Part shown: positions 6,650-52,199 of the stretch, in pieces
Layout: the number at the start of each line of letters is the position of its first letter
Numbering within the stretch: the first letter of the stretch is position 1
UHGV virus genome: UHGV-0277313
Length of the DNA: 64,000 nt
Strand: one strand, 5' to 3'
From: a virus
Notes under the pieces: model-generated
Databases searched by the model: none
Told to the model about the DNA's origin: nothing
The model's input: the letters and a program-made list of their open reading frames with translations, nothing else
Program-made: the position numbers and the translations under genes

Positions 6650-6663
6650 ATTAGGAGGGTAAA

Positions 6664-6945: not shown

Positions 6946-6947
6946 AT

Positions 6948-7691: not shown

Positions 7692-7751
7692 TAATTACTA
7701 TTTATCGTAAGAACAAAGATTTATGTGATAAACAAATAACACTAAACAAAA

Positions 7752-7775
7752 ATGCCGGGCTAAAGTGCTCGGCAT
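7752..7775. terminator. Rho-independent terminator hairpin, bidirectional (A-run / T-run flanks)
   Basis: ATGCCGGGC-taaagt-GCTCGGCAT stem-loop flanked by AAAAA and TTTTT. Confidence 0.6.
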
Positions 7776-7800
7776 TTTTGTTTATTTATCTAATTCAATC

Positions 7801-8160
7801 TCAAAATTCAAAGACATAAGGTAATTCATCTTCACGAATTTCGAAAATCTTATCATGTGTCTTTACGAATCCATGTTCAACCAGATATTCAACAAAACCA
7901 TAAAAAGGTGATTTTGCATCTTTCAACAAAGCGTCTTTATACATTTTTCTTAAGTTGAAATCTTTAATAACAAGAAAAGTTGTATGTTTTGCATCAGCAT
8001 CATTGTCGGCAAATTCATTTAATTCAATTAATTCGCCAGCATGACAATCGAAGCCTTCAGGCTCATATGTATCCCAATCACGTTCGATTTGATCTTCGTT
8101 AAGATATGAACGAACAAATTTACGATAGGATTCTTCGATTTTATTTTTAGAATCAGTCAT
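7801..8160 (-). CDS. Hypothetical protein
   Basis: 119-aa ORF followed by a terminator hairpin. Confidence 0.5.
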   Translation of the reverse strand: MTDSKNKIEESYRKFVRSYLNEDQIERDWDTYEPEGFDCHAGELIELNEFADNDADAKHTTFLVIKDFNLRKMYKDALLKDAKSPFYGFVEYLVEHGFVKTHDKIFEIREDELPYVFEF

Positions 8161-8346
8161 TATTAAAACCTTTAGTTAAGTTGCAACTGAATAAAGAACA
8201 AACTTAAAGACAATCAGCTTGACTTTTGTTTTTTAATTTGATATTTTAAAAACTTCACACAAACCAATGAAAATTGAAGAAAATTTCTTGCAAAATTTCA
8301 TCGTTTGAGTTAATATAGAATAAATTGAGAAAAGAAGAAACGGAAA

Positions 8347-9540: not shown

Positions 9541-9583
9541 AATTGGTAACTATTGTAATTCCAATAACGAATTGAGGTTTAAT

Positions 9584-10492
9584 ATGACATTTAATGACTT
9601 TTTGAAAATTAATGAAATCAAGGCATTGTTTAATTGCCCTGAAAATCTGATCTATCACCCTGAAGGCAATACAGGTGGTCATGTTGTCAAAGCATTAGAA
9701 TGGTTAAATGCCAATTGCCCTTCTGAATACAAACACGATTGTTATATTGCAACATTGCTTCATGATATAGGAAAACCTTTAACGGAAAAGGAAAAGTTTC
9801 CTAAACATCCTAAACATGATGTATTGGGTGCTGAATTTATTACAAACAATTCAAATTTTCGTAAGGCTGTAGAGGATATTTACGGTGTTGTTGATTGGAA
9901 ATTTGTCGAAAATGTTTGCCGTTATCACATGGTTTTTTGGCATTTTAAAGATAGAAATAAACGTGCATCTAGCTTTTTAACTTTATTAGAAGATGTAGGC
10001 TATAAAAATATTGATAAATTTTTATGGTGTGTATTCGCTGATAATTGTAGTAATGACAATGTGAATGATAAAAGCTATGTAACATTGTTTCAGTTGTGTA
10101 AAGACTTGTTTAAAGACTTGAAAAACATGTGCGACAAAGTCATAGAACCTAGTCATAAATATAAACAATGGAAGAATATGTATTGGGAAACTAAAGTGCG
10201 AGTCTGTTCGGATGTTGTTAATACATTTAATAAAGAATCCAAAATTGTTGTGTTTGATGATTTGGTTCAATCTTTCATGAATATGCTAAAGAAAAAAGAA
10301 GGCAGTCAAATTAGCAATGATTCTGTTTCAATAAACAAAGAAAATTCGACATTATGGTTTAATGTTAACAATGTAAATTATGTTATTGAAGTTTTTGATT
10401 TGCAAAAATGTAATTGTCGAGTCATTGCACCTGATTTATTTGAATTTAGATTTAGCACAGATTTCAACGTTTGGTTTGTTCGATTTAAATAA
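9584..10492 (+). CDS. HD-domain phosphohydrolase
   Basis: H...LLHDIGKP...HPKHD...H pattern. GAGGT Shine-Dalgarno precedes ATG 9584; the track ORF starting at 9494 overlaps tnpB. Confidence 0.55.
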   Translation: MTFNDFLKINEIKALFNCPENLIYHPEGNTGGHVVKALEWLNANCPSEYKHDCYIATLLHDIGKPLTEKEKFPKHPKHDVLGAEFITNNSNFRKAVEDIYGVVDWKFVENVCRYHMVFWHFKDRNKRASSFLTLLEDVGYKNIDKFLWCVFADNCSNDNVNDKSYVTLFQLCKDLFKDLKNMCDKVIEPSHKYKQWKNMYWETKVRVCSDVVNTFNKESKIVVFDDLVQSFMNMLKKKEGSQISNDSVSINKENSTLWFNVNNVNYVIEVFDLQKCNCRVIAPDLFEFRFSTDFNVWFVRFK

Positions 10493-10872
10493 TGCTTTTT
10501 AAAAATCTTTTATTTAGTACATCGTGGATAACAAATGAAAAAGTTGATGAATTTGTAAATTCAATAAATGGTTTACAATGTGAAGCACATGTATCATTCG
10601 AAGGGCAAAGAGATGCGGTTATTAATCAGACTTCTAAAGTTGCAATCGCAAGTGATTACGACGTTTATTTCATAAATTTAAATTGCGTAATCAACAATAA
10701 AAAAGCTAAATTTAGTTTAATAGAAACGTTTTGTTTTGATCGAGGTTGGTTTGATAACACTAAATCTTTTGTTGGAAAGGAATATAAAATATTGTATAAA
10801 GATACAGTTAAAGGGCGTGTTCAATTTATCAGTGAAAAAGATGTAGGTGAAAGTTTGTTGGGAGACGTTTAA
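10492..10872 (+). CDS. C-terminal-tail family protein (ends ...KDVGESLLGDV)
   Basis: Shared C-terminal motif. Tandem cluster of three. Confidence 0.55.
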   Translation: MLFKNLLFSTSWITNEKVDEFVNSINGLQCEAHVSFEGQRDAVINQTSKVAIASDYDVYFINLNCVINNKKAKFSLIETFCFDRGWFDNTKSFVGKEYKILYKDTVKGRVQFISEKDVGESLLGDV

Positions 10873-11276
10873 TGGAAGATATAGACATTGCAAAAAGAAA
10901 TTTTTCAAAGATATGTGACAAGTTTTTAGGACAAACTATAACTTGTCAATTTAAAGGATATATTGTTACACAGATTAAACGAATAAATATTCATTTGAAT
11001 GAAAATTTTCACTTTTACGAATGGATTGAACAACCTATTGGGAATGCATTACCTCAATTTAAGGATTGTTTTGAAATTCCTTTTGAAGCTGAAAGCGAAG
11101 TAAAAGGTAATGACGTAGTAAAAGGTAATTGTGTGCAATTTCCAGTATTTGTAAATACGAATGTTTTATTCAAAAATAATAGACAATTGATTTTTAAATA
11201 TGGATTGATTTTTGATTGCTTATATTGTGAAGTAGAAGCAGAAGAAGTTGGATTATCTGTTTTAAACGAGGTTTGA
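10872..11276 (+). CDS. C-terminal-tail family protein (ends ...EEVGLSVLNEV)
   Basis: Shared C-terminal motif. Confidence 0.55.
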   Translation: MEDIDIAKRNFSKICDKFLGQTITCQFKGYIVTQIKRINIHLNENFHFYEWIEQPIGNALPQFKDCFEIPFEAESEVKGNDVVKGNCVQFPVFVNTNVLFKNNRQLIFKYGLIFDCLYCEVEAEEVGLSVLNEV

Positions 11277-12426: not shown

Positions 12427-12726
12427 ATGACTGAAAATTTAACAAAATCGGTAGAGAATTTCATATTATCAAATAAGATATATGGTTATGAAGTTTTGTC
12501 TATCTGTTCTGTTGAAGAATCTTTTCAGAAAGATTATCTTGCTATTGAATTAACAATTAAAACAGATACTTCTTTTAATACTGTAGAACATTGTGTATGG
12601 ATTAGTAAAAAATATCTTGATGAAAAAGTGTATAAACATTTTAGGTATCAGCAACATAAAGATAAACAATGGGTAAGTGAAATTGTTCCGATTGAGATTG
12701 GTGAATTTGCTTTAGAGTCAATTTAA
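12427..12726 (+). CDS. C-terminal-tail family protein (ends ...IEIGEFALESI)
   Basis: Shine-Dalgarno GGAGA. Shared C-terminal motif. Confidence 0.55.
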   Translation: MTENLTKSVENFILSNKIYGYEVLSICSVEESFQKDYLAIELTIKTDTSFNTVEHCVWISKKYLDEKVYKHFRYQQHKDKQWVSEIVPIEIGEFALESI

Positions 12727-12736
12727 AGAGAAACGA

Positions 12737-12928
12737 ATGATTGTAAATTTAATAGAAAGTCAAATAGTCAACAGAATAGATTGTGAACATTTAAAACGTG
12801 TCGAAGATTTAGATAAGTTGGAATGTTTTAACGATTTAATAATGACAGATCTGAAAGAATGCGAAAAAGAACATCTGAAAATTTACAATAAACAAATCGA
12901 AAAAGCGGGAACTTTTAATGGCCAATAA
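12737..12928 (+). CDS. Small hypothetical protein
   Basis: 63-aa ORF between family members. Confidence 0.35.
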   Translation: MIVNLIESQIVNRIDCEHLKRVEDLDKLECFNDLIMTDLKECEKEHLKIYNKQIEKAGTFNGQ

Positions 12929-13253
12929 AAATAAAAAGCTTGAGAGAATATATCAATTATTAAATGAAAAGAATTCAACGTTTTGTTTATATGATCGAGA
13001 AGTATATTTAAAAACATGTCATATATTTCAATTCGATGAATACAATAATGAATACACTGTTGCTGGAGAAATTCATTTAGATAAAGAGCGAACAGAGCAG
13101 CCTTTAGGGTATATAGTTGTAAGAGTCAGTAAAGAAGCTTTAAAATCTTTTCCGTATGTGTTTGAAAAAGGAGATTTAAAGTTAACCGAAAAAGGGTTGT
13201 CTGTCTTCGTGGAAAGAAAAGAGGTTGGAAAAGTTGTTTTAGATAATGTTTAA
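12918..13253 (+). CDS. C-terminal-tail family protein (ends ...KEVGKVVLDNV)
   Basis: Shared C-terminal motif. Confidence 0.55.
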   Translation: MANKNKKLERIYQLLNEKNSTFCLYDREVYLKTCHIFQFDEYNNEYTVAGEIHLDKERTEQPLGYIVVRVSKEALKSFPYVFEKGDLKLTEKGLSVFVERKEVGKVVLDNV

Positions 13254-13257
13254 TTAG

Positions 13258-13286
13258 TTGACATATAGCTTTTTATATGATATATT
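13258..13286 (+). promoter_or_regulatory. Sigma70-like promoter TTGACA-N17-TATATT
   Basis: TTGACA at 13258-13263 and TATATT at 13281-13286. Confidence 0.5.
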
Positions 13287-13756
13287 ACAAAATATAAATT
13301 CTCATCCAAATGTTATTTTTAAAATATATCTTGATTTCTAAATTGATATGAGGTAATCTAAAAGAATAGAAGTTTATCTATAAAGTTTTAAAATTAAGTT
13401 GGAAGGTTTGTGATTTTGTTATACAAGGTGACTAAATCAATGGAAGAAAGAGGATACTTTGTTTAGGTTACAAATTCAACTTGATTTTAAATACAAAAGA
13501 AAATCTGAGTGAAATAAAGGTTTTCTCCTTAGAAATAAGGTTGTTTTTAGATTCATGTCATCTAAATCTATATAAATTTTATAATAGTTTAGAGTGGTGA
13601 GTTATTTTAAGAGAGGTATTTTTGTTTTGCTAAGTTTAGGTGTTGTCTTTACTGTTGTTGCAGTATTAGGTTTCGTTTGGGCAATCAAATTGTCTAAAGT
13701 TGTAGAAAAGGCTGATAAAGCCGATCATGAAAATAAAAACTAATTGAGGTGTGGAA

Positions 13757-14905
13757 ATGTCTTTTAAAAGCTTGACAATCGTTACGATCGTAGTGTGTTT
13801 AGTGCTTTTTGTTTGTTTAGCAGGAGGTCTGTTTGAAACAAACAGTTTTGGAAATTATCAGATTAAACAGGCGGCTGTTACTGGCCATGTAACCGTTCGG
13901 ACGGCGCCAGGTCTTTATTGGCAAGGATTTGGGCAAATCACTACATACCCTGTTTCTGAAGACCTTGATTTTGAAGATTCAAATATGACTGTACGTTTCA
14001 ATGATGGATCTGTTGCTAGTGTGAAAGGTACAGTCAAATACAAATTGCCAATGTTAGAAAAATTGCAGATGGAATTGCATCGTGACTATGGCTCGTTTAA
14101 AAATGTTGAAGAAGATTTGATTCGCAAAAATGTTGCTGAAGCATTGTCACAGGCCGCTACGTTGATGGTTGCTGAAGATTCATATTCTGCAAGACGTGCT
14201 GAATTTTCAGATGCGGCGAAGAAACAGTTGGAAAACGGCATTTTCAAAACGTCTACAAAAGTTGTTGATTCGACTGATGAAAATGGAACAAAATTCAAAC
14301 AGCGCATCATTAACATTGTTTATGATAATGAAGGGAACCCTATCGTTCAGAAGAAGTCGTTGTTGAAGCACTACGGAATTGAAATTCTTCAGTTTGTTGT
14401 AAATGATTTTGGCTACGATTCTAAAATTAACGATTTGATTTCGAAAAAGAAAGAAGCTGAACAGTTAAAAGTTGTTAGTACGGCAAACGCTGAACGTGCT
14501 AAACAGGATGCTTTAACAGCTGAAGCGCAAGGGAAGGCCAGAATTGCAGAAGCCCGTGCAAATGCTGAAGTACAGAAAACTACAGAAGTCGTAGAAGCAC
14601 AGAAACGTGCTGAAGTAGCTAAACTTGCGGCTGAACAGGCTAAATACGAAGCCTTGAAGGTCAAGCAGGAAGGTGAGGCTGAAGCATATGCAAATAAACT
14701 GAAAGTGCAAGCGGGTTTGACACCTTTAGAAAAAGCAACAATCGAAAAAGAAACCCGCATTGGAATTGCAAAAGCATTGGCTAGCGTTAAATTTCCTGAA
14801 CACATGATCATTTCAGGTGGTAGTTCAGGTACAAGTTCAACAAATCCTTTTGACGCAGTAGGACTTAAAGCACTCTACGAATTGTCAAATAGTTTGAATA
14901 AATAA
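13757..14905 (+). CDS. SPFH / band-7 (HflK/C-flotillin-like) membrane protein
   Basis: N-terminal transmembrane helix, then an SPFH-like region. Long Ala/Glu/Lys/Gln coiled-coil (AEAQGKARIAEARANAEVQK...). Shine-Dalgarno GAGGTG precedes ATG 13757. Confidence 0.65.
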   Translation: MSFKSLTIVTIVVCLVLFVCLAGGLFETNSFGNYQIKQAAVTGHVTVRTAPGLYWQGFGQITTYPVSEDLDFEDSNMTVRFNDGSVASVKGTVKYKLPMLEKLQMELHRDYGSFKNVEEDLIRKNVAEALSQAATLMVAEDSYSARRAEFSDAAKKQLENGIFKTSTKVVDSTDENGTKFKQRIINIVYDNEGNPIVQKKSLLKHYGIEILQFVVNDFGYDSKINDLISKKKEAEQLKVVSTANAERAKQDALTAEAQGKARIAEARANAEVQKTTEVVEAQKRAEVAKLAAEQAKYEALKVKQEGEAEAYANKLKVQAGLTPLEKATIEKETRIGIAKALASVKFPEHMIISGGSSGTSSTNPFDAVGLKALYELSNSLNK

Positions 14906-17690: not shown

Positions 17691-18356
17691 ATGTTTGATC
17701 AAAATACAGTAATTCATTTTGAAAATGAAAACAAAGATGAAATTAAAAAGACGTTAGATGAATTGTTTTCATATGAAGAGACATTAGAAGATAATTCCAA
17801 TGTAAAACTTGACCTTAAAGGTAAAAGTCTTGATACAATTGCTTTTGTTTTGAAAGAAGCTTTGAACAATTCAGAATTGAAAAACGTTCAATTGTTAACT
17901 AATGTCCTTTGTTTATTGAAATCATATTTTACATTTGATTCTAGCTTTTTTGAATCAGAAGACATTTATGTTAATAAATCTGTTGAATTAATTGATTTGA
18001 AACGTCGTTTGAAAAGTGATATTGATAAAGTATCACGTCAGGTAGCTATCTATTTTCTGTCAATTTGTCGGTCTTTGAACAAGGTTGAATACACAATGCT
18101 TGATTCATATCGGCCGTTGCCAAACCTTTATCATACAATATTTTTAACGACTGATATGGTTACTATCAGCAGCATTTTATGTGACGTTAAAGATGGTTCT
18201 TTTTCTGAATGTTCATTAGTTCGTGATGCTAATTTGTATTTCAATTCAATCATGAGTAAGTACAGAATTGGGAATGAAATGATGAATGAATTTTTAAGAC
18301 CAATCTTAAAACAATTCCAAAAAGAAGACGGTGCTAAAAATGAAAAAGCTGATTAA
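17691..18356 (+). CDS. Hypothetical protein
   Basis: 221-aa ORF. Confidence 0.5.
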   Translation: MFDQNTVIHFENENKDEIKKTLDELFSYEETLEDNSNVKLDLKGKSLDTIAFVLKEALNNSELKNVQLLTNVLCLLKSYFTFDSSFFESEDIYVNKSVELIDLKRRLKSDIDKVSRQVAIYFLSICRSLNKVEYTMLDSYRPLPNLYHTIFLTTDMVTISSILCDVKDGSFSECSLVRDANLYFNSIMSKYRIGNEMMNEFLRPILKQFQKEDGAKNEKAD

Positions 18357-18996
18357 ATATAGTGAATTAATTGAATACGCATTAACATACATTGCATCAG
18401 TGTGTGAGAATATTGATGGGATGAAACCTTCTATTCCTGATGATGTTAAAAATGGTTATACACGTGTTTTAGCGAACAACGGCAAACATTCAATTACAAT
18501 GGTAGTATCAGATGGAACCGTTGCTCAAGTAGCATCTTCAACTGTTCGTTCTGAATTAACAAGCTTTCTATCAACACAAGGTGTTTATTCTAAAGCTGGA
18601 ACTTTGATTAATGCTAAAGGTGTGCTTAATTTCTTCAATTATTTAGCATCTTTTATCAGTGGTCATGTGTTTACAGTTGTGAATAATGTGTCAGGAAATA
18701 AATGCTGTGTGTATAAAGCAGGGAATGTTTCTGTGTCAGGGGTTTCGAGATTGTCAGAAGAAATAGATTCAGATCCTGAACGTCATAATGTAATCTTTAC
18801 AGCAACACATAATGAAAACAATCTTGCATCTCTGACAGAAGCACTAAAAAATGTAACTAGTGTAAAAAGTATTAATACGTTAATTAATTACGCTTGCTCA
18901 TCGTCTTCGTCATCATCAAGTTCATCTTGTAGTTGTTCAAGTAGTTCAAGTTGTTGCAGCTCGTCTTCTTCGTATATTGTCTATATGATGATTTAA
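18340..18996 (+). CDS. Hypothetical protein with poly-Ser/Cys C-terminal tail
   Basis: Ends CSSSSSSSSSSCSCSSSSSCCSSSSSYIVYMMI. Shine-Dalgarno GGTG precedes ATG 18340. Confidence 0.5.
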   Translation: MKKLIKYSELIEYALTYIASVCENIDGMKPSIPDDVKNGYTRVLANNGKHSITMVVSDGTVAQVASSTVRSELTSFLSTQGVYSKAGTLINAKGVLNFFNYLASFISGHVFTVVNNVSGNKCCVYKAGNVSVSGVSRLSEEIDSDPERHNVIFTATHNENNLASLTEALKNVTSVKSINTLINYACSSSSSSSSSSCSCSSSSSCCSSSSSYIVYMMI

Positions 18997-19579: not shown

Positions 19580-20218
19580 ATGAAAAAGTTTAATTTAAAA
19601 TTAGGTAATAACATTTGTCCTTTTTGTGGTAGTGAATTAACATATAATGACGAATATAAAATTGTTTACTGTAAGATATGTAAAGAAAAAGGTCATGCAG
19701 TACAATTTAAATATAAAGATGATCCACAAGAAGCATTTGATTATGCAAACACAAGAAACGGTGAAAATGAACTGTTGGAAAAACTTCAGGATTTGTATGC
19801 ATATCTTAAACAATTAGGTATTGAAGGTCAAAATCTTGAAGATATTTCAGTTGCATCAGAAGGTGAATTGCCAAACAACGGTTGGATTATTACTGAAGAA
19901 GCTGTTGCCTTGCCTTGCGAAGAACCTCATGATGTAATGTATTCACATTTGGTTACAGATAAATCTATCAATTTGTCTGATCGTCAAGCTGTTTGTAATT
20001 CTTTGCATTGTATTAATGTGACATACGTCATGAAAGTCCTTGACATTTATATTCCAAAAAGATATAATGCTAAACAGAAAGAAGTTTTAACGAAGGTTTG
20101 TTCAAAGTATCCAAAAGATACCAAAATTGAAGTTGAGTATTTGACAGATGCTAAAGGAAAACAGTTCGAAACTTTTGATGGAATAAGTGACTTTTTACTA
20201 TTTTTGGATACGATCTAA
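19580..20218 (+). CDS. Zinc-ribbon (CxxC...CxxC) protein
   Basis: ICPFCGS...YCKICKE motif at the N-terminus. Confidence 0.5.
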   Translation: MKKFNLKLGNNICPFCGSELTYNDEYKIVYCKICKEKGHAVQFKYKDDPQEAFDYANTRNGENELLEKLQDLYAYLKQLGIEGQNLEDISVASEGELPNNGWIITEEAVALPCEEPHDVMYSHLVTDKSINLSDRQAVCNSLHCINVTYVMKVLDIYIPKRYNAKQKEVLTKVCSKYPKDTKIEVEYLTDAKGKQFETFDGISDFLLFLDTI

Positions 20219-21081
20219 TGAACATTAAACCAATTACGGAATTTCTTCTTTGGGATAATTGCAATAATAATTGTAAATTTTGTTTTCAACGTAAGAATCC
20301 GCGATTGTTTTCATTAGATGGTCAAAAACAAATTCTTGATAATGTATTAAGTTTTCTTAATTCAGACGATTATATAAAAGGAAGTCATGTACTTGTTGTT
20401 GGCGGTGAGCTTTTCGACCGTGAACGCGAGTTCATGCTTCCTTTTTTTGAACAGATTATAGAAAAAATGTTATCTGATGATATAGATATTCTATATCTGA
20501 ATACGAATTTAATTTATGATGCAACATATTCGACGATGCTTAAACCTGTTTTAAAATTATTTGATGCAAATAATTTATTTGACAGGTTAAAGTTTACAAC
20601 ATCTTTTGATATTGCAGGAAGGTTTAAGACCAAACAGGCACGATCATTAGTATTAAGCAACCTTTTACTGCTAAAGGAAGATTTTCCAAAATTGCGAACT
20701 GTTGTTAATATAATTTTAACAAAACAGTTTTGTGAAAGTGTCATTTATGAAAAGTTTGAAATCTTTCATTTTATGGAATCTTTTGGAGTTAATACAAATC
20801 TAATTCCGTATATTGTTTTAGATAAAGAATTGTGCGCCGATCGGGAAACTATCTTTGCCGCTTTACGAAAGATTAATGAACAACATCCAGAATATATCAG
20901 ACAATACGTAGATAATATGGATTTGCGACATAAACGTTATTTGTATGCTTGTTACCCTGAACATTTACAATTATGTAGTTGTGAAGATTCAGAATGTGGT
21001 CATTCAATAAACTTTAAGAAATATAGTGATGATCCAGAAGCTTGTTTTGTATGTGATTTAAAAAAAGAGTTTGATCAATGA
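20218..21081 (+). CDS. Radical SAM enzyme (array A, 1 of 4)
   Basis: CNNNCKFC (Cx3Cx2C) and VVGGELF motifs. C-terminal cysteines CSCEDSECGHS...CFVCD. Confidence 0.7.
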   Translation: MNIKPITEFLLWDNCNNNCKFCFQRKNPRLFSLDGQKQILDNVLSFLNSDDYIKGSHVLVVGGELFDREREFMLPFFEQIIEKMLSDDIDILYLNTNLIYDATYSTMLKPVLKLFDANNLFDRLKFTTSFDIAGRFKTKQARSLVLSNLLLLKEDFPKLRTVVNIILTKQFCESVIYEKFEIFHFMESFGVNTNLIPYIVLDKELCADRETIFAALRKINEQHPEYIRQYVDNMDLRHKRYLYACYPEHLQLCSCEDSECGHSINFKKYSDDPEACFVCDLKKEFDQ

Positions 21082-22034
21082 CTAAAGTAAATACTAATGT
21101 TGTAGATTGTGGAGAACATCGATTCTTGCAATTCAATCTATGGAAAGATTGTAATAATAATTGTGAATTTTGTTTTTATCGTGGCCACAAATTATTATCA
21201 AATGAAAAGAAAATTTCATCAATTAATTTTGTTAAAGAAAGATTATTAGATTTTGAAGAGTCTGATTTCTATAATGAAATTGGTTTCATTGGCGGTGAGT
21301 TCTTTGATAATCAAATTGAAAATGAGTCTGTTAAAAAAGCTTTTTATGGATTGTTCGATATCCTAAAAGATAAACGTGAACGTGGAAAGCTTGATCGTAT
21401 TTACATTACAACAAACTTAATATTCGATTCACATAAATTATTGCGGCCATTTCTTGACTATTTAAAAGAATTGAACCTTTTAGATATCACATTATTATGC
21501 ACATCGTATGATTTAAAATACAGATTTCATAATGAAAAAGCATTGCAGTATTGGCAAGATAATATGATTAATTTGTCAAAAGATTACAATACAATGATTC
21601 ATACAGAAATTATTGTAACGCAAGCTTTTATTGATGCTGTCATGAGTGGTTCATTTGACATCGAAGATTTCTGTGATAAATATAATACACGAATCGATTA
21701 TATCGAACCTTCTTCAGGTTTCTATTTCTATGATAAAAAGGAATGCGAGAAAGAAGTTAAAGACTTTTTCCCTAAACGTGAGGATTTCTTAAACTTTATT
21801 AGATATACCGCAATTGATAATAATTGGATTGATTTAACAAAATTCTTGTCAATGCGAATCAGATCAGATACGTTGTACTGTCATTTAAAAGGTCAATGGA
21901 GAAAGCTGGAAGGTCGTAGGTCACAATATATATGCCCGACTTTAGGATTGTATGACGTAACGTATGAGAATGGTTATTGTGATTCGACAGAATCAATGGT
22001 CGATGATGTAAATGCATTTTTAGGGAGTGTATGA
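21078..22034 (+). CDS. Radical SAM enzyme (array A, 2 of 4)
   Basis: CNNNCEFC and FIGGEFF motifs. Start overlaps the upstream stop. Confidence 0.7.
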   Translation: MTKVNTNVVDCGEHRFLQFNLWKDCNNNCEFCFYRGHKLLSNEKKISSINFVKERLLDFEESDFYNEIGFIGGEFFDNQIENESVKKAFYGLFDILKDKRERGKLDRIYITTNLIFDSHKLLRPFLDYLKELNLLDITLLCTSYDLKYRFHNEKALQYWQDNMINLSKDYNTMIHTEIIVTQAFIDAVMSGSFDIEDFCDKYNTRIDYIEPSSGFYFYDKKECEKEVKDFFPKREDFLNFIRYTAIDNNWIDLTKFLSMRIRSDTLYCHLKGQWRKLEGRRSQYICPTLGLYDVTYENGYCDSTESMVDDVNAFLGSV

Positions 22035-22966
22035 TGGGGAAAATGGTTCAATATTCGATGTGGTCAAATTGCAGTAATCATTGTGATTTTTGTTTAATTC
22101 GTGATCATCATCATTATACAAAAAAAGAACAGATTGCGAATATACGTAGAATTCGTGAGAATATAAAACATGTTGACTGGCAGAATGAATTTTCATACGG
22201 AATTTCTTTATTAGGTGGTGAGCTTTATTTTATTACTGATAAAGAAGTGCAAGATGAATTTATGTTGTTAATTGATGATATCATTGAAAATATCTTGTTA
22301 AAAGTGGATAATAAATTCTGCCGATATTCATCTGTTACTAACGGTTTATATGAGCCTTCTTTCCTGTTTCGCGTAATTGATGAAATAAAAAATAGAGCAG
22401 GTATTGAAAAAGTTGACATTAACTTTTCATATGATTTGAAATATCGTTATCATTCAGAAGCTAGAAGAAAATTGGCTTTGGAAAATATTAACAAATTTCA
22501 TGACAGATATGATTATAGAGTTGGCGTACAAATGATTGTTACACAACATTTGATTAATTTGTGTAAATCAGGTGAATTTAATGTAGCAGAATTTGTTGAA
22601 AAAGAAATTCCTGGATGTGTATTGTCTTTATTATACCCGCACCCTGTTCAAACTGGTAATGTATTGCCGGATTTCTTTTTTACACGCGATGACCTGTTTT
22701 GGTTCGTTAATTATTTAAGAGAGAATTGTTTGGATACATATTATAATTTCCTATACAGTACAAAAAATTCTGGTACGTTTAAATATACAGGTTTTCTTGA
22801 CAGATCGTCTAAAGGTATGAAACAATTGGATCAGCAGCCAACATTGTCTGATGGTAAAGAAGAATTAAGTGAATGTGGTCATTCTGTTTTGTATAAATGC
22901 TATTCAGATAGTGATGAATGTATGTTATGTGACTTGGAATTATTAGAAGCGGATATTAATTCATGA
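22031..22966 (+). CDS. Radical SAM enzyme (array A, 3 of 4)
   Basis: CSNHCDFC and LLGGELYF motifs. C-terminal ECGHS...CYSDSDECMLCD. Confidence 0.7.
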   Translation: MMGKMVQYSMWSNCSNHCDFCLIRDHHHYTKKEQIANIRRIRENIKHVDWQNEFSYGISLLGGELYFITDKEVQDEFMLLIDDIIENILLKVDNKFCRYSSVTNGLYEPSFLFRVIDEIKNRAGIEKVDINFSYDLKYRYHSEARRKLALENINKFHDRYDYRVGVQMIVTQHLINLCKSGEFNVAEFVEKEIPGCVLSLLYPHPVQTGNVLPDFFFTRDDLFWFVNYLRENCLDTYYNFLYSTKNSGTFKYTGFLDRSSKGMKQLDQQPTLSDGKEELSECGHSVLYKCYSDSDECMLCDLELLEADINS

Positions 22967-23943
22967 ATAAAGAAAATGATAACAGACAAGAATGTCAATT
23001 TGAAGTTTGGACTGAATGCAATTCTAAATGTGTGTTTTGTTATTTAAGTACAAATAACATTAAAACATTAGATGAAATTAAAATAAAACAGATGAATGAA
23101 ATCATCGATAGCATGAAAGCCGATGACTTTTGTGAAAAGTTTAATAAAGTTGCATTCATTGGCGGTGAATTTTATCAAGGTCAACTATCAAATCCTGAAG
23201 TCAAGTCTAAATTTATGGAAATGATGGATGTTGCAGCAGATTTACTAAACAGTGGTAAAATTACTGAAGTTTGGACTTGTGCAACTTTAACAATTGGTGA
23301 TCAGAAGGATATGTATGAAGTCTTGAAGAAATTCAATGACATATCAAGAGTTTGGGTGTTGACATCATACGATACTATAGGAAGATTTCATACACCTAAA
23401 ATGAAACAGACGTGGCTTGATAACATGCAGAAGTTACGTGACACATACAAAGATATTAAGATTAACATTACATCAATCTTAACTGGTGATTTTATTGATA
23501 AATATCTTGAAGGAACTTTAGATTTATGGGAAATTGCTAATCAGTATAATGCAGCAATTTTCTTAAAACCAGCATGCCCTATTGATAGAAACGAAAAGTC
23601 ACAATACACTAAAGAAGAAACCAATCAAATTATACCAAACTTTTTCCCAACACGTGACAAATTTATTGAGTTTCTATATAAATTTAAAATGAATGAGCCT
23701 GAATTCATGTATGATAAATTATTCAACATGAAATATAGAAGCGATTATTTATATCGTTTTGAAGAAGGTGAAATGCATTGTTCGCATCGAGTAAAAGAAA
23801 CACAGCAAGAGTTTTATGATAAACAAATAGCTGATAATGTTGTTAATAAATGCGGACATAGTTCACAATATCAAATATATCTTGATAGTGATGAATGTGC
23901 TGTTTGTGATAAAGAAATGATTAAGGAAATGGTGAATGATTGA
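22963..23943 (+). CDS. Radical SAM enzyme (array A, 4 of 4)
   Basis: CNSKCVFC and FIGGEFYQ motifs. C-terminal KCGHS...DSDECAVCD. Confidence 0.7.
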   Translation: MNKENDNRQECQFEVWTECNSKCVFCYLSTNNIKTLDEIKIKQMNEIIDSMKADDFCEKFNKVAFIGGEFYQGQLSNPEVKSKFMEMMDVAADLLNSGKITEVWTCATLTIGDQKDMYEVLKKFNDISRVWVLTSYDTIGRFHTPKMKQTWLDNMQKLRDTYKDIKINITSILTGDFIDKYLEGTLDLWEIANQYNAAIFLKPACPIDRNEKSQYTKEETNQIIPNFFPTRDKFIEFLYKFKMNEPEFMYDKLFNMKYRSDYLYRFEEGEMHCSHRVKETQQEFYDKQIADNVVNKCGHSSQYQIYLDSDECAVCDKEMIKEMVND

Positions 23944-24874
23944 GTCTATTCTAGAAAAAGTATCTTTTAACAATGCCGAATTTGCATTTTATAAAGAGTC
24001 ACTTAAAAGTTACAATGCAAAAGAAATCATGTCTGAACATGATTATGAATCAGTTGATAAAGCATTGAAAGAATTTCTTCCTTGCAAAATTAATGACGAT
24101 TATCATTTTACATTTTCAACAACCGCAACTGATTTAATTAAACAGTTATTTAAAAAGTATGTTGATGATGACACATTGGTTTTGACAACAAATAGTGAAC
24201 ATCCTAAAGTTCAGGAAATTTTAAAGAAATGCAAAAACGTAGTTAAAGCTTTTGATAAAGAAAGTTTACAACAGTTTACAGTTGATAATAAATATAAACG
24301 CGTTTTTATTTATATGATTGGGACAATGTGTGCAACAGGCCACATTGTTTATGATCAGGAGTTTGAATCAATCATTGAACGTGCAAAAGCTTCAGGTAAA
24401 GAAGTCATTACAGTCATTGATGCAGTTCAAGAACTATTCCTATTACACCGTGATTATAACAAATTCGATTATATTATTGGTACAGCACATGCCTTAATTC
24501 CTGAATATAATGTTGGTTTAATGTTGTCAAAAGACACATCAGTTGGAAAACATTTGATGATTGCGCAACCTTTTGTAACGATGTTAAAATGGCTTTTAAA
24601 GCGCAAAGAATACCTATATCAATTCAGTACTTTTATGAGTATGGAATTTGGCAATACCCGTAATACACAATTCTATCATGATTTTGGTATCAGTCATCTA
24701 TTCTTTATTAAAACCAGAAATGGTGAATTTAATCAGATGCAAGAAGAAGATACTGTAAAAGATAATATCGACAATGTTGGTGTATTATTTAGAGGTTGTT
24801 GGTCTGTTGTAGATCGTGAAACTTTTGATAATCTTTTACAAACAACAAAATTCATTGTTGAAGGGAATATCTAA
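23936..24874 (+). CDS. IscS/NifS-like PLP-fold protein lacking PLP lysine (paralog 2)
   Basis: LTTNSEHPKV and VIDAVQELF...IIGTAHALIP motifs. Confidence 0.5.
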   Translation: MIESILEKVSFNNAEFAFYKESLKSYNAKEIMSEHDYESVDKALKEFLPCKINDDYHFTFSTTATDLIKQLFKKYVDDDTLVLTTNSEHPKVQEILKKCKNVVKAFDKESLQQFTVDNKYKRVFIYMIGTMCATGHIVYDQEFESIIERAKASGKEVITVIDAVQELFLLHRDYNKFDYIIGTAHALIPEYNVGLMLSKDTSVGKHLMIAQPFVTMLKWLLKRKEYLYQFSTFMSMEFGNTRNTQFYHDFGISHLFFIKTRNGEFNQMQEEDTVKDNIDNVGVLFRGCWSVVDRETFDNLLQTTKFIVEGNI

Positions 24875-25833
24875 TGAAATTAATTACTAATTGGTTGAAT
24901 AGTTTTGATTATTCAAAAAATGAATTAGAACAATTGGCAAGAATACGGATATCCGATGATATCATTATAGATAACTTTGATGAAGAAAAAGTTCGAACTT
25001 TTTCAATGATACCGTTTGATAGCTTTAAATATAATCATCTGACTGTTGATACATGTGCAACAAATATCATTAATAATTTATTTGATAAATATGTTGATGA
25101 CGATACTTTGGTTATTACAACAGGAAGTGAACATCATTCTGTTAGAAACAATCTAAACAAATGCCAAAATGTTGTTAATTTTGTTTGTCGTGGGGAAATC
25201 CGTCAAGATATAGATATAATTAACACAATAAAACCTTTTAAAAAAGTATTCATTTATATGATTGCTTTAAGTGTCGGCGACCCACATTATCTTAACAATT
25301 GTATTGTGGAGCAATTACAAAACATTCTAAAAGAAAACAATAAACAATTCGTTACTGTATTAGATGCTGTACAAGAATTGTTTTTATTACCACGAGATTA
25401 TTCAATCTATGATTATGTTGTAGGCACTTCACATGCGTTAATACCGAATTATGATATGGGAATGTTATTCGGTAAAGAAGAGCTTTCATATAAAGCGGGA
25501 AATTGGTTGAAAGATTTTAACGATTGTCTGGAAATTCTTTTAAGAAACCGCGACAAATTATATCAATTGAACGTTGTAATGCGTCAACACTTTGCCAAAT
25601 ATACATGTTTCGATAAAGATTTAATTGATTCAAGTCGTGCACCGTATGTTTATAATTTGTGTGATTATAAAAAACGTTTAGACGGTTTAAACGATGTCGA
25701 TTACGAACGAGGAGCAGTAGCTCCTGGTGATTACACACCTGTTACTTTTAGGGCATGCCCGTTTTTAGCACATCAAGAAAAGTTCCTTGATAGAATACAA
25801 ACGATTGATAATATCCTTGAATCAGATATGTGA
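24874..25833 (+). CDS. IscS/NifS-like PLP-fold protein lacking PLP lysine (paralog 3)
   Basis: VDTCATN, ITTGSEHHSV and VLDAVQELF...VVGTSHALIP motifs. Confidence 0.5.
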   Translation: MKLITNWLNSFDYSKNELEQLARIRISDDIIIDNFDEEKVRTFSMIPFDSFKYNHLTVDTCATNIINNLFDKYVDDDTLVITTGSEHHSVRNNLNKCQNVVNFVCRGEIRQDIDIINTIKPFKKVFIYMIALSVGDPHYLNNCIVEQLQNILKENNKQFVTVLDAVQELFLLPRDYSIYDYVVGTSHALIPNYDMGMLFGKEELSYKAGNWLKDFNDCLEILLRNRDKLYQLNVVMRQHFAKYTCFDKDLIDSSRAPYVYNLCDYKKRLDGLNDVDYERGAVAPGDYTPVTFRACPFLAHQEKFLDRIQTIDNILESDM

Positions 25834-25837
25834 AGAT

Positions 25838-25864
25838 AAAGGCTGGAAACTAAATCCAGCCTTT
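25838..25864. terminator. Bidirectional terminator hairpin
   Basis: AAAGGCTGGA-aactaaa-TCCAGCCTTT. Confidence 0.65.
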
Positions 25865-25868
25865 ATAT

Positions 25869-26483
25869 TTATTGAATTGCTTTATCTATATTGACAACAC
25901 GTTGTTGTTGATCCATTGTACGATAAAGTTGTTTGTCAAACCAATCTAAACCTTCAGGTGTGTTCGGAACAATTATAAATTTTAAATCATCTTTAAAACG
26001 TATCGAGTTGTCTTCGATAAAAGGTTTGAACATATCTTTCACACAAATGAATTTCCAATTATTCAAGACATATTTGCGTAATTCAGAATAAATTCCGAAA
26101 GCGTCAAGGTGATCTAAACGAAGAAGAGTGTCATTAATTTTGTCATAATCTTCTTCAGTAATTGTTGACATTGAACAACCGCAAACAATTTGTGATTGTT
26201 TTGTTTTATCAAAACTTAATTGATTAACTGTTAAAATAACTAAATGAGTTTTATCAAAAAATATACGCATTTTCACAAAACTAAAAACACCTTTTTCTGA
26301 CACATCATTTTTAGAATGAAAAGAAAATTCTTTGATATCTTCTAGATTCCATTGAGAGCCATCAACATATGGCGAAATGTAACCAAAATCTTCTTTTGCA
26401 TACTTTAGATGTTTTTCTTCTAAAGGTTGTTCGTAACTATCTTCCATGTATTCAAGAAAGGTTTCAATAAACGTCTTTTTCAT
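25869..26483 (-). CDS. Hypothetical protein
   Basis: Shine-Dalgarno GAAGGTGA precedes the ATG at 26483; the track ORF extends to 26561. Confidence 0.5.
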   Translation of the reverse strand: MKKTFIETFLEYMEDSYEQPLEEKHLKYAKEDFGYISPYVDGSQWNLEDIKEFSFHSKNDVSEKGVFSFVKMRIFFDKTHLVILTVNQLSFDKTKQSQIVCGCSMSTITEEDYDKINDTLLRLDHLDAFGIYSELRKYVLNNWKFICVKDMFKPFIEDNSIRFKDDLKFIIVPNTPEGLDWFDKQLYRTMDQQQRVVNIDKAIQ

Positions 26484-26637
26484 AAAAATCACCTTCATAT
26501 TCTTATATAAAATAAAGAACGAACAGTGAAAGTCTAACACATATTTAAGACACAAAAACACGTTATTTAAGTTTTTGTTTTTATCATATTTAAATTATTT
26601 AATAAATAAAGTGTGTTTTTAAACCCCGCTTTCCTTT

Positions 26638-27255
26638 TTATATTGCAATTATTTTTACATAGCCACCTATAGCAGGAAACGAAGCATTATTTTGTCCTGC
26701 ATTGTTATTCCCTGAAGCGCCAGGACCTGTTATTGTTCCATCATATGTTGAAACTGTACGTGTTGAACCAGGCGTATTCCAAGAATCATAAATAGCAAAC
26801 CATTTACCATTTACAGGTGTTGCATTACTTATTATTTGAAAATTTGTCCATAGATTAGTATCGAAACCGCCTGTTGAATACCCAATAGCTTTTGTACCAT
26901 CACCAACTTTTCCAGAGTTAAAGGCAGCGCCTACTTGGGATAAATCACCTTGTGGGGAAATAAAAATATTGGACGAATAATCCGGCAACGTTCCAACACC
27001 AGAAGCCACACCGGTATTTGTCGGTGCAGCAATATTTCCATAACTAAAATTTGAGTTATCACCACCATTACCAACAACTATATACAGTTTTTGCCCTGCA
27101 TGTTTAGGTTTTATTCGTATAATTCCACAACCTGAACCACTTGCCGTTGATCTTGACCAATAGAGCTTATAACGTTTATCTGTATGTTTGTTTAACTTGT
27201 TTGTACGATTATGTCTTTTTGGTTTATTATCAATAAAGTTACTGATATTTATCAT
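26638..27255 (-). CDS. Gly-rich structural-type protein
   Basis: LYIVVGNGGDNS... Gly/Thr/Asn-rich sequence. Immediately downstream of 27270..27527. Confidence 0.5.
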   Translation of the reverse strand: MINISNFIDNKPKRHNRTNKLNKHTDKRYKLYWSRSTASGSGCGIIRIKPKHAGQKLYIVVGNGGDNSNFSYGNIAAPTNTGVASGVGTLPDYSSNIFISPQGDLSQVGAAFNSGKVGDGTKAIGYSTGGFDTNLWTNFQIISNATPVNGKWFAIYDSWNTPGSTRTVSTYDGTITGPGASGNNNAGQNNASFPAIGGYVKIIAI

Positions 27256-27269
27256 GAAAATTTCCTTTT

Positions 27270-27527
27270 TTATAAGTCAACAACTGCACCAACTACAGGT
27301 GAACCCCCACCGACAACAACTATCTCAACCATTTGTGATGTCGGTAACATTATTTCATAGGTACTAAAACCACCACCACCATTATTACCAAACTTTTCAA
27401 ACAAAACAGTTCCAGAAGGTAAAGCTTTTTGATATATCAAAGTTTGACCTTGATAAATTTCTTTGATTACTCTGTCACCAAAAGTAACTAAAGGAACTTT
27501 ATTTCCTTGATAAATTATCATATGCAA
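27270..27527 (-). CDS. Small Gly-rich protein (IYQG...VVVGGG family)
   Basis: IYQGNKVPLV...IYQGQTLIY then VEIVVVGGGSP. Confidence 0.5.
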   Translation of the reverse strand: MHMIIYQGNKVPLVTFGDRVIKEIYQGQTLIYQKALPSGTVLFEKFGNNGGGGFSTYEIMLPTSQMVEIVVVGGGSPVVGAVVDL

Positions 27528-27743: not shown

Positions 27744-28382
27744 ATGTCAATCAATAATCAAGGTCGAAAAATAAAAGTAATTTATAAAGGTTCAACAAAG
27801 TTTGGACGTGTTTATAAAGGTGAACAGATAATTTTTGGAACAAAGTTTCATGATGTAAAAACTTTTACAGCGTCCGGAAGTTTTATCTTTCCAAACAGAC
27901 TGATTTCATTGACTATTACAGTTGTTGGTGGCGGTGGTGCATCTGGTGGTTGGTCAAATGATAGGCACGGTTGGTACACACCAAAACCTGGTCAAAACGG
28001 CGGAAAAGCTATACATTCACTGTCTAATGCAATTGATTATTCAAATAAAACTGTAACGTTTATTGTTGGTGATGGTGGAAAAGCTGGTGCTCAAGCCTGG
28101 TCTGGAAAATTTAACGGGTTTTATGCTTCTACCAAAGGCGGCGACAGTTCAGTTCCATTGTTTAATTTGGTTGCGACAGGTGGTTATCAAGGGTGGACTG
28201 CAGGAAACCCTCAATCTACTGATAACCAACCTGGTACGGCATCTGGTGGCAATACGTTCAATGGTGTTTCAACAGATGCATATCCTGCAAATGGTGGTGG
28301 CGCCCCAATTTCTTCATCGGTTGGTGCTGGCATTAATGGTGTTGTCGGTAAAGTAGTTTTTGATTATTACTATTGGAAATAA
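27744..28382 (+). CDS. Gly-rich structural-type protein (KVIYKG...TITVVGGGGASG)
   Basis: Paralog of 6948..7691 and 33744..34385. Confidence 0.6.
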   Translation: MSINNQGRKIKVIYKGSTKFGRVYKGEQIIFGTKFHDVKTFTASGSFIFPNRLISLTITVVGGGGASGGWSNDRHGWYTPKPGQNGGKAIHSLSNAIDYSNKTVTFIVGDGGKAGAQAWSGKFNGFYASTKGGDSSVPLFNLVATGGYQGWTAGNPQSTDNQPGTASGGNTFNGVSTDAYPANGGGAPISSSVGAGINGVVGKVVFDYYYWK

Positions 28383-33709: not shown

Positions 33710-33745
33710 CCAGTAGTTAAATTAATTGCTGGTCTTTATTTTTTT
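33710..33745 (+). terminator. Rho-independent terminator
   Basis: CCAGUAGUU...AAUUGCUGG stem with G-U pairs, then TCTTTATTTTTTT. Confidence 0.5.
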
Positions 33746-34385
33746 ATATTGTTCTAATCTCGACCCAACCAGACTGTCCTGTTGCACCAACGATTGTTGT
33801 GGATTGGTTTGTCCCACTCCCACCAGCACCTGGCCCTGTTAATGTTCCATCAACAAGTGAATAACCCCCGTGACCTCCAGCAACCCAACCGTCACCATTG
33901 TTACCTACCGAATTTCTGATTATTCGATAAAACGATCCTTGAACTGTAGCTGCAGCTCCCCCAGCACCATGCCCAATACCACCATTTCGTTGGCTATCAC
34001 CACCGCCTCCTCCTGAAATTGACACAAGACCAGATATAGATGAGCCACCACCATTTTGTGCCCATACGTTTCTATTTCCACCAGCACTTCCAGCTCCAAT
34101 GACAATTGACAATACAGTGTTTTTAATTAATTTTATATCACCAATAAATAAACCACTACTACCACCAGATGCAGTTGCTCCACCTCCACCACCACCAACA
34201 ACAGTGATACGATAGTTTTGTGATGTTGGGATTGTAAATGAATAGGTTCCTGAATTACGTATAGAAAATAAAACGGTATTTACAGGAAGAATTTGAAACA
34301 TTAATGAAGAAGCATGATAAACTTTTCCAATATTTCGACTACCTTTAATGGTGCAAATCAATTTATTTCCTTTATATATTGGCAT
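33744..34385 (-). CDS. Gly-rich structural-type protein (IYKGNK...RITVVGGGGGGATASGG)
   Basis: Paralog of 6948..7691 and 27744..28382. Confidence 0.6.
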   Translation of the reverse strand: MPIYKGNKLICTIKGSRNIGKVYHASSLMFQILPVNTVLFSIRNSGTYSFTIPTSQNYRITVVGGGGGGATASGGSSGLFIGDIKLIKNTVLSIVIGAGSAGGNRNVWAQNGGGSSISGLVSISGGGGGDSQRNGGIGHGAGGAAATVQGSFYRIIRNSVGNNGDGWVAGGHGGYSLVDGTLTGPGAGGSGTNQSTTIVGATGQSGWVEIRTI

Positions 34386-48176: not shown

Positions 48177-48195
48177 TAGTGAGTTATTTTAATAA

Positions 48196-52190: not shown

Positions 52191-52199
52191 ATTTTAAAT

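Follow-up and report, generated by a model that had tools for sequence, protein, structure and literature searches.

What does a virus do with four radical S-adenosylmethionine (rSAM) enzymes and two desulfurase-like proteins without a cofactor-binding lysine, all encoded in a single tightly packed block? This question is raised by positions 20,218 to 25,833 of a 64,000-nucleotide stretch of the virus genome UHGV-0277313, hereafter the window. A preliminary description of the sequence had drawn attention to the block and suggested that it modifies a peptide, protein or nucleic acid by sulfur- or carbon-radical chemistry, with the desulfurase-like proteins serving as carriers or scaffolds. In this study, we found that the six genes form part of a longer cassette that recurs in related phages, downstream of a gene for a protein, TAILP, whose C-terminal tail contains a tract of only serine and cysteine. 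The cassette looks like an undescribed protein-modification system of the rSAM peptide-maturation type, with TAILP as its candidate substrate.

The conserved module and a related gene farther upstream in the window comprise the following features (positions of the window; aa, amino acids; ORF, open reading frame; Lys-less, without the lysine that binds pyridoxal 5'-phosphate, PLP). ORF1 to ORF4 are the rSAM groups A to D, in that order, and ORF5 and ORF6 are Lys-less proteins of the NifS/IscS fold.

17691-18356, plus strand: accessory gene, 221 aa, without a known family; first gene of the conserved module
18331-18996, plus strand: TAILP, 221 aa, 22 kDa; orphan N-domain, Ser/Cys tract and C-terminal YIVYMMI; candidate substrate
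18895-18972, plus strand: Ser/Cys tract of TAILP, CSSSSSSSSSSCSCSSSSSCCSSSSS; 26 residues, Ser and Cys only
18973-18996, plus strand: conserved C-terminal peptide of TAILP, [F/Y]-I-[A/V/G]-Y-M-x-[I/L], and stop codon
19009-19569, plus strand: tail-less paralog of the TAILP N-domain (p19009), 186 aa, identified by alignment
19580-20218, plus strand: Zn-ribbon (Lar-like) protein, with a weak match to Pfam Lar_restr_allev (E 9e-4); in some lineages only
20218-21081, plus strand: ORF1, rSAM group A, 287 aa; C-terminal CxC-x4-CGHS-x15-CxxCD
21078-22034, plus strand: ORF2, rSAM group B, 318 aa; without the C-terminal Cys motif
22031-22966, plus strand: ORF3, rSAM group C, 311 aa; C-terminal CGHS-x5-C-x6-CxxCD
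22963-23943, plus strand: ORF4, rSAM group D, 326 aa; C-terminal CGH-x14-CxxCD
23936-24874, plus strand: ORF5, Lys-less NifS/IscS-fold protein 1, 312 aa; GTAHAL
24874-25833, plus strand: ORF6, Lys-less NifS/IscS-fold protein 2, 319 aa; GTSHAL
2367-3326, plus strand: Lys-less NifS-fold paralog, the third in the window, with 43% identity to ORF6

The six ORFs of the block lie exactly where the preliminary description had placed them. Stop codons overlap the start codons that follow, in ATGA or TAATG junctions, and the six ORFs are translationally coupled. A TAATG junction likewise joins the Zn-ribbon ORF, ending at 20218, to ORF1. The rSAM genes had been described as fused to the desulfurase-like genes; this wording has to be dropped, as the genes are adjacent and separate ORFs.

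All four enzymes belong to the rSAM superfamily, a placement proposed earlier on which motifs, Pfam and PHROG matches, a profile match to YydG and the predicted fold of ORF3 concur. Each carries the N-terminal CX3CX2C and the GGE motif that had been pointed out, and the four are mutual paralogs (BLASTP, E 7e-11 to 2e-35); judged by their sequences, they are ancient rSAM paralogs. In an alignment of 28 sequences, which covers groups A to D in seven lineages, W11, C14, C18, C21, G62, G63, S133, D135 and R139 are invariant, and F20 and E64 are nearly so (ORF3 numbering). A further, 40-sequence alignment agrees with this, and E64 is invariant in it. These residues include the CX3CX2C motif (C14, C18 and C21, with the aromatic F20 before the last Cys), the GGE motif and an SxD ribose motif, and the last two align to the GGE and SYD of YydG. 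The cutoff of the Pfam model PF04055 (29.5 bits) is exceeded by ORF2 (30.5 bits), with ORF4 (28.9), ORF3 (20.1) and ORF1 (19.5) below it, and PHROG 1802, annotated as rSAM, matches ORF1 to ORF3 (E 2e-11 to 6e-10). Searched against solved structures, the family profile finds YydG/EpeE as its best match (E 1.5e-8, 176 residues, 37.7 bits), followed by viperins (E 2e-4). The fold was modelled for ORF3 only: the AlphaFold2 (AF2) model has a mean predicted local distance difference test (pLDDT) score of 90.9 and consists of alternating beta and alpha elements. In a Foldseek search of the PDB with this model, 25 of the 25 matches at E <= 1e-3 were rSAM enzymes, among them EpeE (3e-6), anSMEcpe (4K37, rank three, 3.2e-6), viperins (about 5e-6), DesII and the sactisynthase CteB (1.6e-4).

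The C-terminal regions divide the quartet. A CGHS...CxxCD cluster had been ascribed to all four proteins; it is present in ORF1, ORF3 and ORF4 and absent from ORF2 and the orthologs of ORF2. Across groups A, C and D the motif reads CGH(S)-x5-16-(C-x6)-CxxCD, with the form (CxC)-x4-5-CGHS-x15-CxxCD in group A and four invariant Cys in group C. It may bind one auxiliary cluster, in a reduced, twitch-like arrangement as at the C-terminus of YydG, or form a zinc site. A canonical SPASM domain is ruled out: the SPASM/twitch models (PF13186, TIGR04085), a check proposed earlier, give no match to ORF1-4 at E <= 1, and the CX2CX5CX3C signature is absent.

Several known identities were likewise rejected for ORF1-4. 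Viperin, QueE, NrdG and MoaA are ruled out, with curated cutoffs far from reached; the viperin model (NF038283, PADLOC pVip; cutoff 180 bits) scores 15 to 21 bits, over residues 5 to 70 or so only. The YydG model TIGR04078 (cutoff 300 bits) finds none of the four at E <= 1, and neither the YydG nor the anSME equivalog model comes near its cutoff. The PADLOC models gave nothing beyond the weak viperin-like matches at the N-terminus. Among the four groups, C is the most conserved (orthologs 52 to 64% identical), and D is often duplicated in relatives. Because each of the orthogroups A to D is kept across lineages, they appear to be non-redundant, which implies four distinct steps or sites.

The preliminary description had also recognized ORF5 and ORF6 as IscS-like paralogs that read TAHA or TSHA in place of SGHK. 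Alignment and fold prediction bear this out, and the substitution extends to the whole family. The two paralogs (36% identity, E 8e-46) have GTAHAL in ORF5 and GTSHAL in ORF6 where IscS has FSGHKI. Single sequences of this type barely detect class V enzymes: PF00266 (cutoff 21.5 bits) gives 12.4 bits for ORF6 (E 0.074) and no match for ORF5, SufS and TIGR01977 are weakly matched, a phmmer search of the PDB sequences with ORF6 was negative, and none of 32 homolog clusters of the family carries a precomputed Pfam domain. The relationship emerges from profiles and structure. The family profile matches 1ECX, a NifS-like protein of Thermotoga (E 9e-4), and the AF2 model of ORF6, built from 25 homologs (pLDDT 91.8), has NifS, IscS and SufS as its top PDB matches in Foldseek (E 1e-10, TM-score 0.55-0.63). 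From these models, ORF5, ORF6 and the paralog at 2367-3326, which the preliminary description had not linked to them, are predicted to share the NifS/IscS fold.

Aligned by hhalign to E. coli IscS (taken from NC_000913), ORF6 pairs A62 with A75, T63 with T76, S85 with T102, E86 with E103, H87 with H104, D164 with D180 and Q167 with Q183; in the lysine region, T185 pairs with S203, S186 with G204, H187 with H205 and A188 with K206. The probability of this alignment is low, the template being a single sequence, and its register agrees with the 1ECX alignment and the fold match. A hidden Markov model (HMM) search of 1.84 billion representative proteins returned 222 matches only, 200 of them below 1e-10. 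Because so exhaustive a search found so few, the family appears to be discrete, with no gradual passage into the NifS superfamily. At 50% identity it comprises about 220 clusters. One member, P0257, is 450 aa long and a possible fusion; it sits on a 2-kb contig.

Family statistics were drawn from the 169 members of at least 250 residues. In the column of IscS K206 they have Ala (109), Ser (43), Val (13), Asn (2), Cys (1) or Thr (1), and never Lys. A lysine displaced by misalignment, the explanation that could have undone the earlier observation, is ruled out, as no lysine is conserved elsewhere (K96 in 56%, a Lys at +3 in 17 members, or 10%). The remaining PLP contacts are kept: D164 and H187 in all 169, T185 in 168, Q/H167 in 167, H87 in 166 and T/S63 in 157. 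Thus, six of the seven contacts of IscS are conserved at 93 to 100%. G196 is present in all 169 members, and a family-specific motif, R174-D175-Y176...D180, shows at least 90% conservation. Conserved Cys columns are lacking (C97 in 81 members, 48%; C295 in 32, 19%), and the ORF6 loop 265-287, the counterpart of the C328 loop of IscS, has no Cys. Desulfurase function is therefore ruled out, lysine and catalytic Cys both being absent. Sulfur mobilization finds no support in a family without the catalytic lysine or a conserved persulfide-capable Cys, and among the ORFs examined, in which no dedicated search was run, we noticed no IscU/SufE-like partner. The proteins had been regarded as PLP-dead scaffolds, and this view is now doubtful. 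Because six of the seven cofactor contacts are kept under selection, a ligand-binding protein is favored over a dead scaffold; conservation suggests that the pocket most likely still binds a ligand of the PLP or pyridoxamine 5'-phosphate (PMP) type.

What the enzymes act on is suggested by their neighbor. TAILP has an orphan N-domain of about 185-188 aa and ends in ...YA-CSSSSSSSSSSCSCSSSSSCCSSSSS-YIVYMMI. Across nine lineages the tract is 18 to 26 residues long and contains one to five Cys, the rest being Ser; Thr, Gly, Ala and Asn never occur. Its serine codons are a mixture of TCN and AGY, so the tract is not a DNA repeat, and Thr, the other single-step intermediate between the two families of serine codons, is never found in it. 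In a six-frame scan of all fetched loci, every run of at least 15 Ser or Cys residues proved to be the C-terminus of TAILP. Given that only Ser and Cys are admitted, that the N-domains are only about 30% identical and that the codons are mixed, the composition of the tract fits selection on beta-hydroxyl and beta-thiol chemistry and not on flexibility. The peptide behind the tract is conserved as well: I216, Y218 and M219 are invariant in the TAILP alignment, and the terminal heptapeptide averages 48% identity, compared with about 30% for the N-domain. The tail-less paralog p19009 ends in a similar beta-strand-like peptide and has no tract. Homologs of TAILP were found in 5 clusters only. The accessory gene at 17691-18356 matches nothing in Pfam or PHROG.

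The association between TAILP and the enzymes is constant. At least nine divergent lineages of phages share the four rSAM orthogroups and the Lys-less protein, and the conserved block that the preliminary description had anticipated is thus not a chance pattern. Nine lineages have upstream DNA that can be read (here denoted by the L numbers of their loci: the window with L002-5, L001, L007-11, L012, L013, L015, L019/20, L023/24 and L025/27), and in all nine a TAILP with its Ser/Cys tract lies upstream of the rSAM block. It immediately precedes the block in L012 and L013; elsewhere, only the tail-less paralog and, in some lineages, the Zn-ribbon gene (orthologs in L002-5 and L025) intervene. 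Accessory gene, TAILP and tail-less paralog precede the block in most lineages, not both extras in every one: orthologs of the accessory gene lie just upstream of TAILP in L001, L007-11, L013, L015, L019, L023 and L025, with none detected in L012, and the tail-less paralog is next to TAILP in most lineages. Order and copy number within the block vary (A-B-C-D-Isc, A-B-Isc-C-D-D-D and C-D'-D-Isc-B, where Isc is the NifS-fold gene), and a cassette carries one to three NifS-fold proteins. L001 has duplicate copies of TAILP, its paralog, rSAM B, rSAM D and the NifS-fold gene. The cassette is located among tail genes. In L023, it lies between sheath, tube and tail-fiber genes on one side and baseplate genes on the other, and the window is rich in tail-fiber domains.

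Some relatives show additional features at or near the cassette. L019 and L020, which lie on ENA contigs of 147 kb and 79 kb and have the identical cassette order, read TAG as sense: 12 genes contain 68 in-frame TAG codons between them, and each of the 12 ends in TAA or TGA. In L015, a truncated PLP enzyme of Cys/Met metabolism (12573-13508, 311 aa), which resembles cystathionine or methionine gamma-lyase and has its PLP lysine, follows rSAM group A. A NodU/TobZ-type carbamoyltransferase of about 540 aa is appended to the cassette in L001 (13475-15088) and L028 (5248-6870), followed by a further rSAM gene related to that at 51249 of the window. L021 encodes a SAM lyase (PF23780; 11933-12577, minus strand) about 2 kb downstream of the genes after the cassette, which is noteworthy given that the phage needs SAM for its many rSAM enzymes.

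NifS-fold genes also occur away from the quartet. Directly behind the third paralog of the window comes a QueC-like PP-loop ATPase (3329-4186, plus strand), which has an SGGYDST motif and, at its C-terminus, a Cys cluster; an RNase T-like exonuclease is next. The NifS-fold/QueC-like pair is conserved in the 314-kb IMG/VR relative L006 (9989-11817). L014 encodes the NrdG activase, the anaerobic ribonucleotide reductase NrdD and a Lys-less NifS-fold gene with a GTG start (6232-11026), without an rSAM quartet nearby; the NrdD holds an intein with a LAGLIDADG homing endonuclease. In L002/L005, a TnpB-related gene (8623-9969) is inserted between two NifS-fold genes. It is a homolog (32% identity) of a 435-aa gene present in the window as two 83%-identical copies (36479-37792, minus strand; 46869-48176, plus strand), and owing to this insertion the TnpB-related gene appears to be mobile. 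Two further TnpB/Cas12f-like ORFs are found at 1186-2268 and 8347-9540.

Altogether, these observations suggest that the cassette carries out radical post-translational modification of the TAILP tail, our best explanation, although we hold it at no better than even odds. Between the peptide, protein and nucleic-acid substrates envisaged earlier, a protein is now favored because the Ser/Cys-tailed protein lies upstream in every lineage whose region can be read. The nearest characterized rSAM relatives act on peptide or protein residues, and TAILP keeps its upstream position despite the shuffled order and copy number of the block. The setting among tail genes is a further point in favor, as are the RiPP maturases that the second rSAM cluster of the window (45-55 kb) matches best. 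The complete system would consist of the accessory gene, TAILP, the tail-less paralog, rSAM A to D and one to three NifS-fold proteins. That TAILP is the substrate, which of its residues are attacked, by which chemistry, and that the NifS-fold protein binds a cofactor, we infer from sequence and analogy. The folded N-domain of TAILP would act as leader or scaffold, and the Ser/Cys tract, the ...IxYM end or both would be threaded into the rSAM active sites. Each enzyme would cleave SAM reductively to a 5'-deoxyadenosyl radical, which would abstract a C-alpha or C-beta hydrogen from residues of the tail. By analogy, the outcome could be epimerization (as with YydG), conversion of Ser or Cys to formylglycine (anSME) or thioethers from Cys to C-alpha (sactisynthases). 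The NifS-fold protein could process a carbonyl intermediate in a PMP-dependent manner, as do ColD, E1, SpnQ and the daptide aminotransferase, or else serve as a ligand-bound adaptor. The daptide enzyme is a class III aminotransferase, and this fold-type-I class normally keeps its catalytic lysine. A more specific version, in which a poly-formylglycine tract would be transaminated by the NifS-fold protein with non-covalent PMP to poly-2,3-diaminopropionate, or in which the tail would become an alternating D/L or a thioether-stapled rod, we consider quite unlikely.

Several observations speak against radical modification of the TAILP tail, and three other explanations were considered. The positions of Cys inside the tract are not conserved, and a poly-Ser tract could simply serve as a linker for presenting the beta-strand-like peptide at the terminus. 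The quartet may then act on another target of the tail module, such as a tail-fiber or baseplate protein, or on the IxYM peptide only, with the tract as the linker of a syntenic structural protein. We think this unlikely. It would suit a cassette embedded among tail-fiber and baseplate genes, a terminal heptapeptide better conserved than the N-domain, and the similar end that p19009 has without any tract. A plain linker should, however, tolerate Gly, Thr, Asn and Ala, of which nine lineages have none, and would not explain why TAILP is constantly upstream while the order of the block is shuffled. This constancy has its own limit, as all nine lineages are related phages and the adjacency partly reflects shared ancestry and is not fully independent. 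Furthermore, TAILP and its family have no match in PHROGs, Pfam or the PDB, no known fold or RiPP recognition element (RRE; RiPP, peptide made on the ribosome and modified after translation) was detected in them, and no RRE, protease or exporter was found for the cassette. The candidate precursor is a 22-kDa protein with a C-terminal tract and not a short peptide.

The remaining objections concern the NifS-fold proteins and the kind of substrate. With Ala in place of the lysine, there is no obvious residue to act as general base in PLP or PMP chemistry, and the occurrence of these proteins away from the quartet, next to the QueC-like ATPase in the window and after NrdG/NrdD in L014, hints at a more general role. 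They may be non-catalytic Fe-S helpers, concerned with loading or stabilizing the clusters of the rSAM enzymes and NrdG and standing outside the chemistry of the quartet, which we regard as rather unlikely. The IscS of A. fulgidus and the IscS1 of M. acetivorans serve Fe-S assembly without the lysine or desulfurase activity (PMC7585200), the window has at least 11 rSAM proteins that might need such help, and NrdD also lies near the cassette in L019 and L025. However, the A. fulgidus protein provides a conserved Cys ligand and works with IscU, whereas the phage family has no conserved Cys, and an IscU-like gene was not noticed, again without a dedicated search; moreover, a pure scaffold role would leave the near-invariant PLP contacts unexplained. 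The cassette may instead make or modify a nucleotide, a nucleic acid or a small molecule, by viperin-like chemistry or DNA hypermodification with rSAM and PLP-type steps, and TAILP would then be unrelated. In the fold search viperins, which act on nucleotides, came nearly equal to the peptide enzymes, the third NifS-fold paralog neighbors a QueC-like ATPase and an exonuclease, and the block is joined by a carbamoyltransferase gene in L001 and L028. Yet the similarity to viperins is confined to the N-terminal cluster and GGE region, at about 20 bits against a cutoff of 180, the QueE model is matched by none of the four rSAM proteins, and the SxD motif and the best profile match tie the enzymes to a peptide-modifying, SPASM/twitch-related clade. 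FolE, DpdA and nucleotide kinases were not noticed in the block, where they were not specifically searched for. A nucleotide or small-molecule product is, in our view, improbable, slightly more so than the Fe-S role.

In line with the preliminary description, no earlier account of this phage module was found. A megablast search of the whole 5.6-kb block (20218-25833) and a tblastn search with ORF4 and ORF6 found no match in 50,697 deposited phage genomes, and no relative of the cassette was found among viral structure predictions. Literature searches on polyserine and rSAM enzymes, on huge phages and rSAM enzymes, and on phage-encoded RiPPs and rSAM enzymes likewise turned up no description of it. 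The multiplicity of rSAM genes alone is not new, given that phages CP220 and CPt10 have 11 to 12 of them (PMC2853527). Three features stand out as unusual: the conservation of all four rSAM orthogroups, a NifS-fold family that is discrete and Lys-less and yet has its cofactor pocket kept, and a pure Ser/Cys tract on a folded tail-module protein. If the reading of TAILP as substrate is correct, this would be the first rSAM/RiPP-type modification machinery dedicated to a phage tail-module protein. Residue-by-residue conversion of the tract would give the tails of jumbo phages a chemically new appendage and would represent a new class of PLP-fold enzymes that act on protein-borne carbonyls without a Schiff-base lysine. 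A conserved fold-type-I family that has lost the lysine and kept the pocket would, in turn, point to lysine-independent PLP/PMP chemistry or to a ligand sensor. The carriers form an abundant and uncultured clade, with 867 clusters of the rSAM family at 90% identity (E <= 1e-3), and the system is small, at seven to nine genes, with a candidate substrate whose C-terminus is defined to 33 residues. It may also offer a clue to the presence of a dozen rSAM genes in some large phages.

The window, which has a GC content of about 30% and no tRNA genes, comes from an uncultured jumbo phage, as indicated by the lack of matches in deposited phage genomes and by its close relatives on IMG/VR contigs. These contigs measure 65 to 314 kb, and some are binned into metagenome-assembled genomes of unrelated taxa. 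Two candidate expression signals flank or precede the block:

20040-20068, plus strand: perfect sigma-70 consensus (TTGACA-17-TATAAT), 150 nt upstream of ORF1
25836-25866, plus strand: strong hairpin of 12 base pairs with a T-run, three bases past the last stop codon; operon terminator, facing the convergent gene 25869-26561

The first may be an internal promoter and is offered as a lead only; the region has 80 promoter-like sites, compared with 75 expected from shuffled sequence, and hence no overall excess.

A second rSAM cluster (45-55 kb), which the preliminary description had not connected with the first, occupies 45055-55285 on the plus strand. It contains seven genes (starting at 45055, 45999, 48196, 49289, 50353, 51249 and 54308), with two tandem pairs of paralogs, and brings the total encoded by the window to at least 11. 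Their best NCBIfam matches are RiPP maturases (DynA, PapB, AmcB and anSME), and the 54308 gene resembles a full rSAM/SPASM enzyme; ORFs of unknown function start at 52200, 52823 and 53529 within the cluster. The two clusters may be functionally related, because the L001 ortholog of 45055 abuts the TAILP block. Elsewhere in the window, small glycine-rich paralogs (26638-27255, minus; 27270-27527, minus; 27744-28382, plus; 6948-7691, minus; 33744-34385, minus) share an N-terminal '...KVIYKG...', have no database match and are scattered among tail-fiber-like genes; they also occur in L013. A serine recombinase with resolvase and helix-turn-helix domains is encoded at 61046-61834 (plus strand) and an SPFH/Band-7 protein at 13751-14905 (plus strand).

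Parts of this system have counterparts elsewhere. The Campylobacter phages CP220 and CPt10 are large and virulent and carry 11 to 12 rSAM genes without an assigned role, five of them in an exchangeable module (PMC2853527); neither a NifS-fold partner nor a Ser/Cys-tailed protein has been reported there. For the NifS-fold proteins, the IscS of A. fulgidus and the IscS1 of Methanosarcina offer a precedent in which the same fold has naturally lost the lysine and has no desulfurase activity; in the A. fulgidus protein Lys is replaced by Asp, and the protein supplies the IscU-bound cluster with a Cys ligand (PMC7585200). In contrast to these archaeal proteins, which keep the active-site Cys, pair with IscU and have Asp for the lysine, the phage family has Ala, Ser or Val in place of the lysine and no conserved Cys, is about 85 residues shorter and retains the other PLP contacts. 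The sugar 3-dehydratases ColD, E1 and SpnQ are fold-type-I enzymes that work without the lysine, using non-covalent PMP on carbonyl substrates (PMC8987622). Unlike the phage family, they are DegT/aspartate-aminotransferase-like, have His as the replacement base and act on nucleotide sugars, whereas the phage proteins are nearest to class V (NifS) and have Ala, Ser or Val at this position, with no replacement base. Daptide maturation provides a precedent for a fold-type-I PLP enzyme that acts on a carbonyl of a ribosomal peptide, since its aminotransferase acts on a ketone borne by the peptide (PMC10036551). In daptides, however, the carbonyl is generated by an oxidative decarboxylase and not by an rSAM enzyme, and the system is bacterial and not phage-borne.

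For the rSAM quartet, two peptide- or protein-modifying enzymes are the most instructive: formylglycine is formed from Cys or Ser by anSME, the anaerobic sulfatase-maturating enzyme, and the peptide epimerase YydG removes the C-alpha hydrogen from residues of peptides (PMC5682303). Like AtsB, anSME abstracts a C-beta hydrogen from protein Cys or Ser, exactly the two residues allowed in the tract; it differs in its complete SPASM domain, which holds two auxiliary clusters, and in its recognition motif C/S-x-P-x-R, neither of which was found in the phage system. YydG/EpeE of B. subtilis is the best profile and Foldseek match. It shares CX3CX2C, GGE and SYD with the phage enzymes, has extra Cys ligands at its C-terminus and acts on a ribosomal peptide encoded alongside (PMC5682303). 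The phage cassette departs from it in having four paralogous enzymes where B. subtilis has one, a Lys-less NifS-fold partner and a setting in a phage tail module, and its putative substrate is the Ser/Cys-rich tail of a folded 22-kDa protein, as opposed to the Val and Ile residues on which YydG acts.

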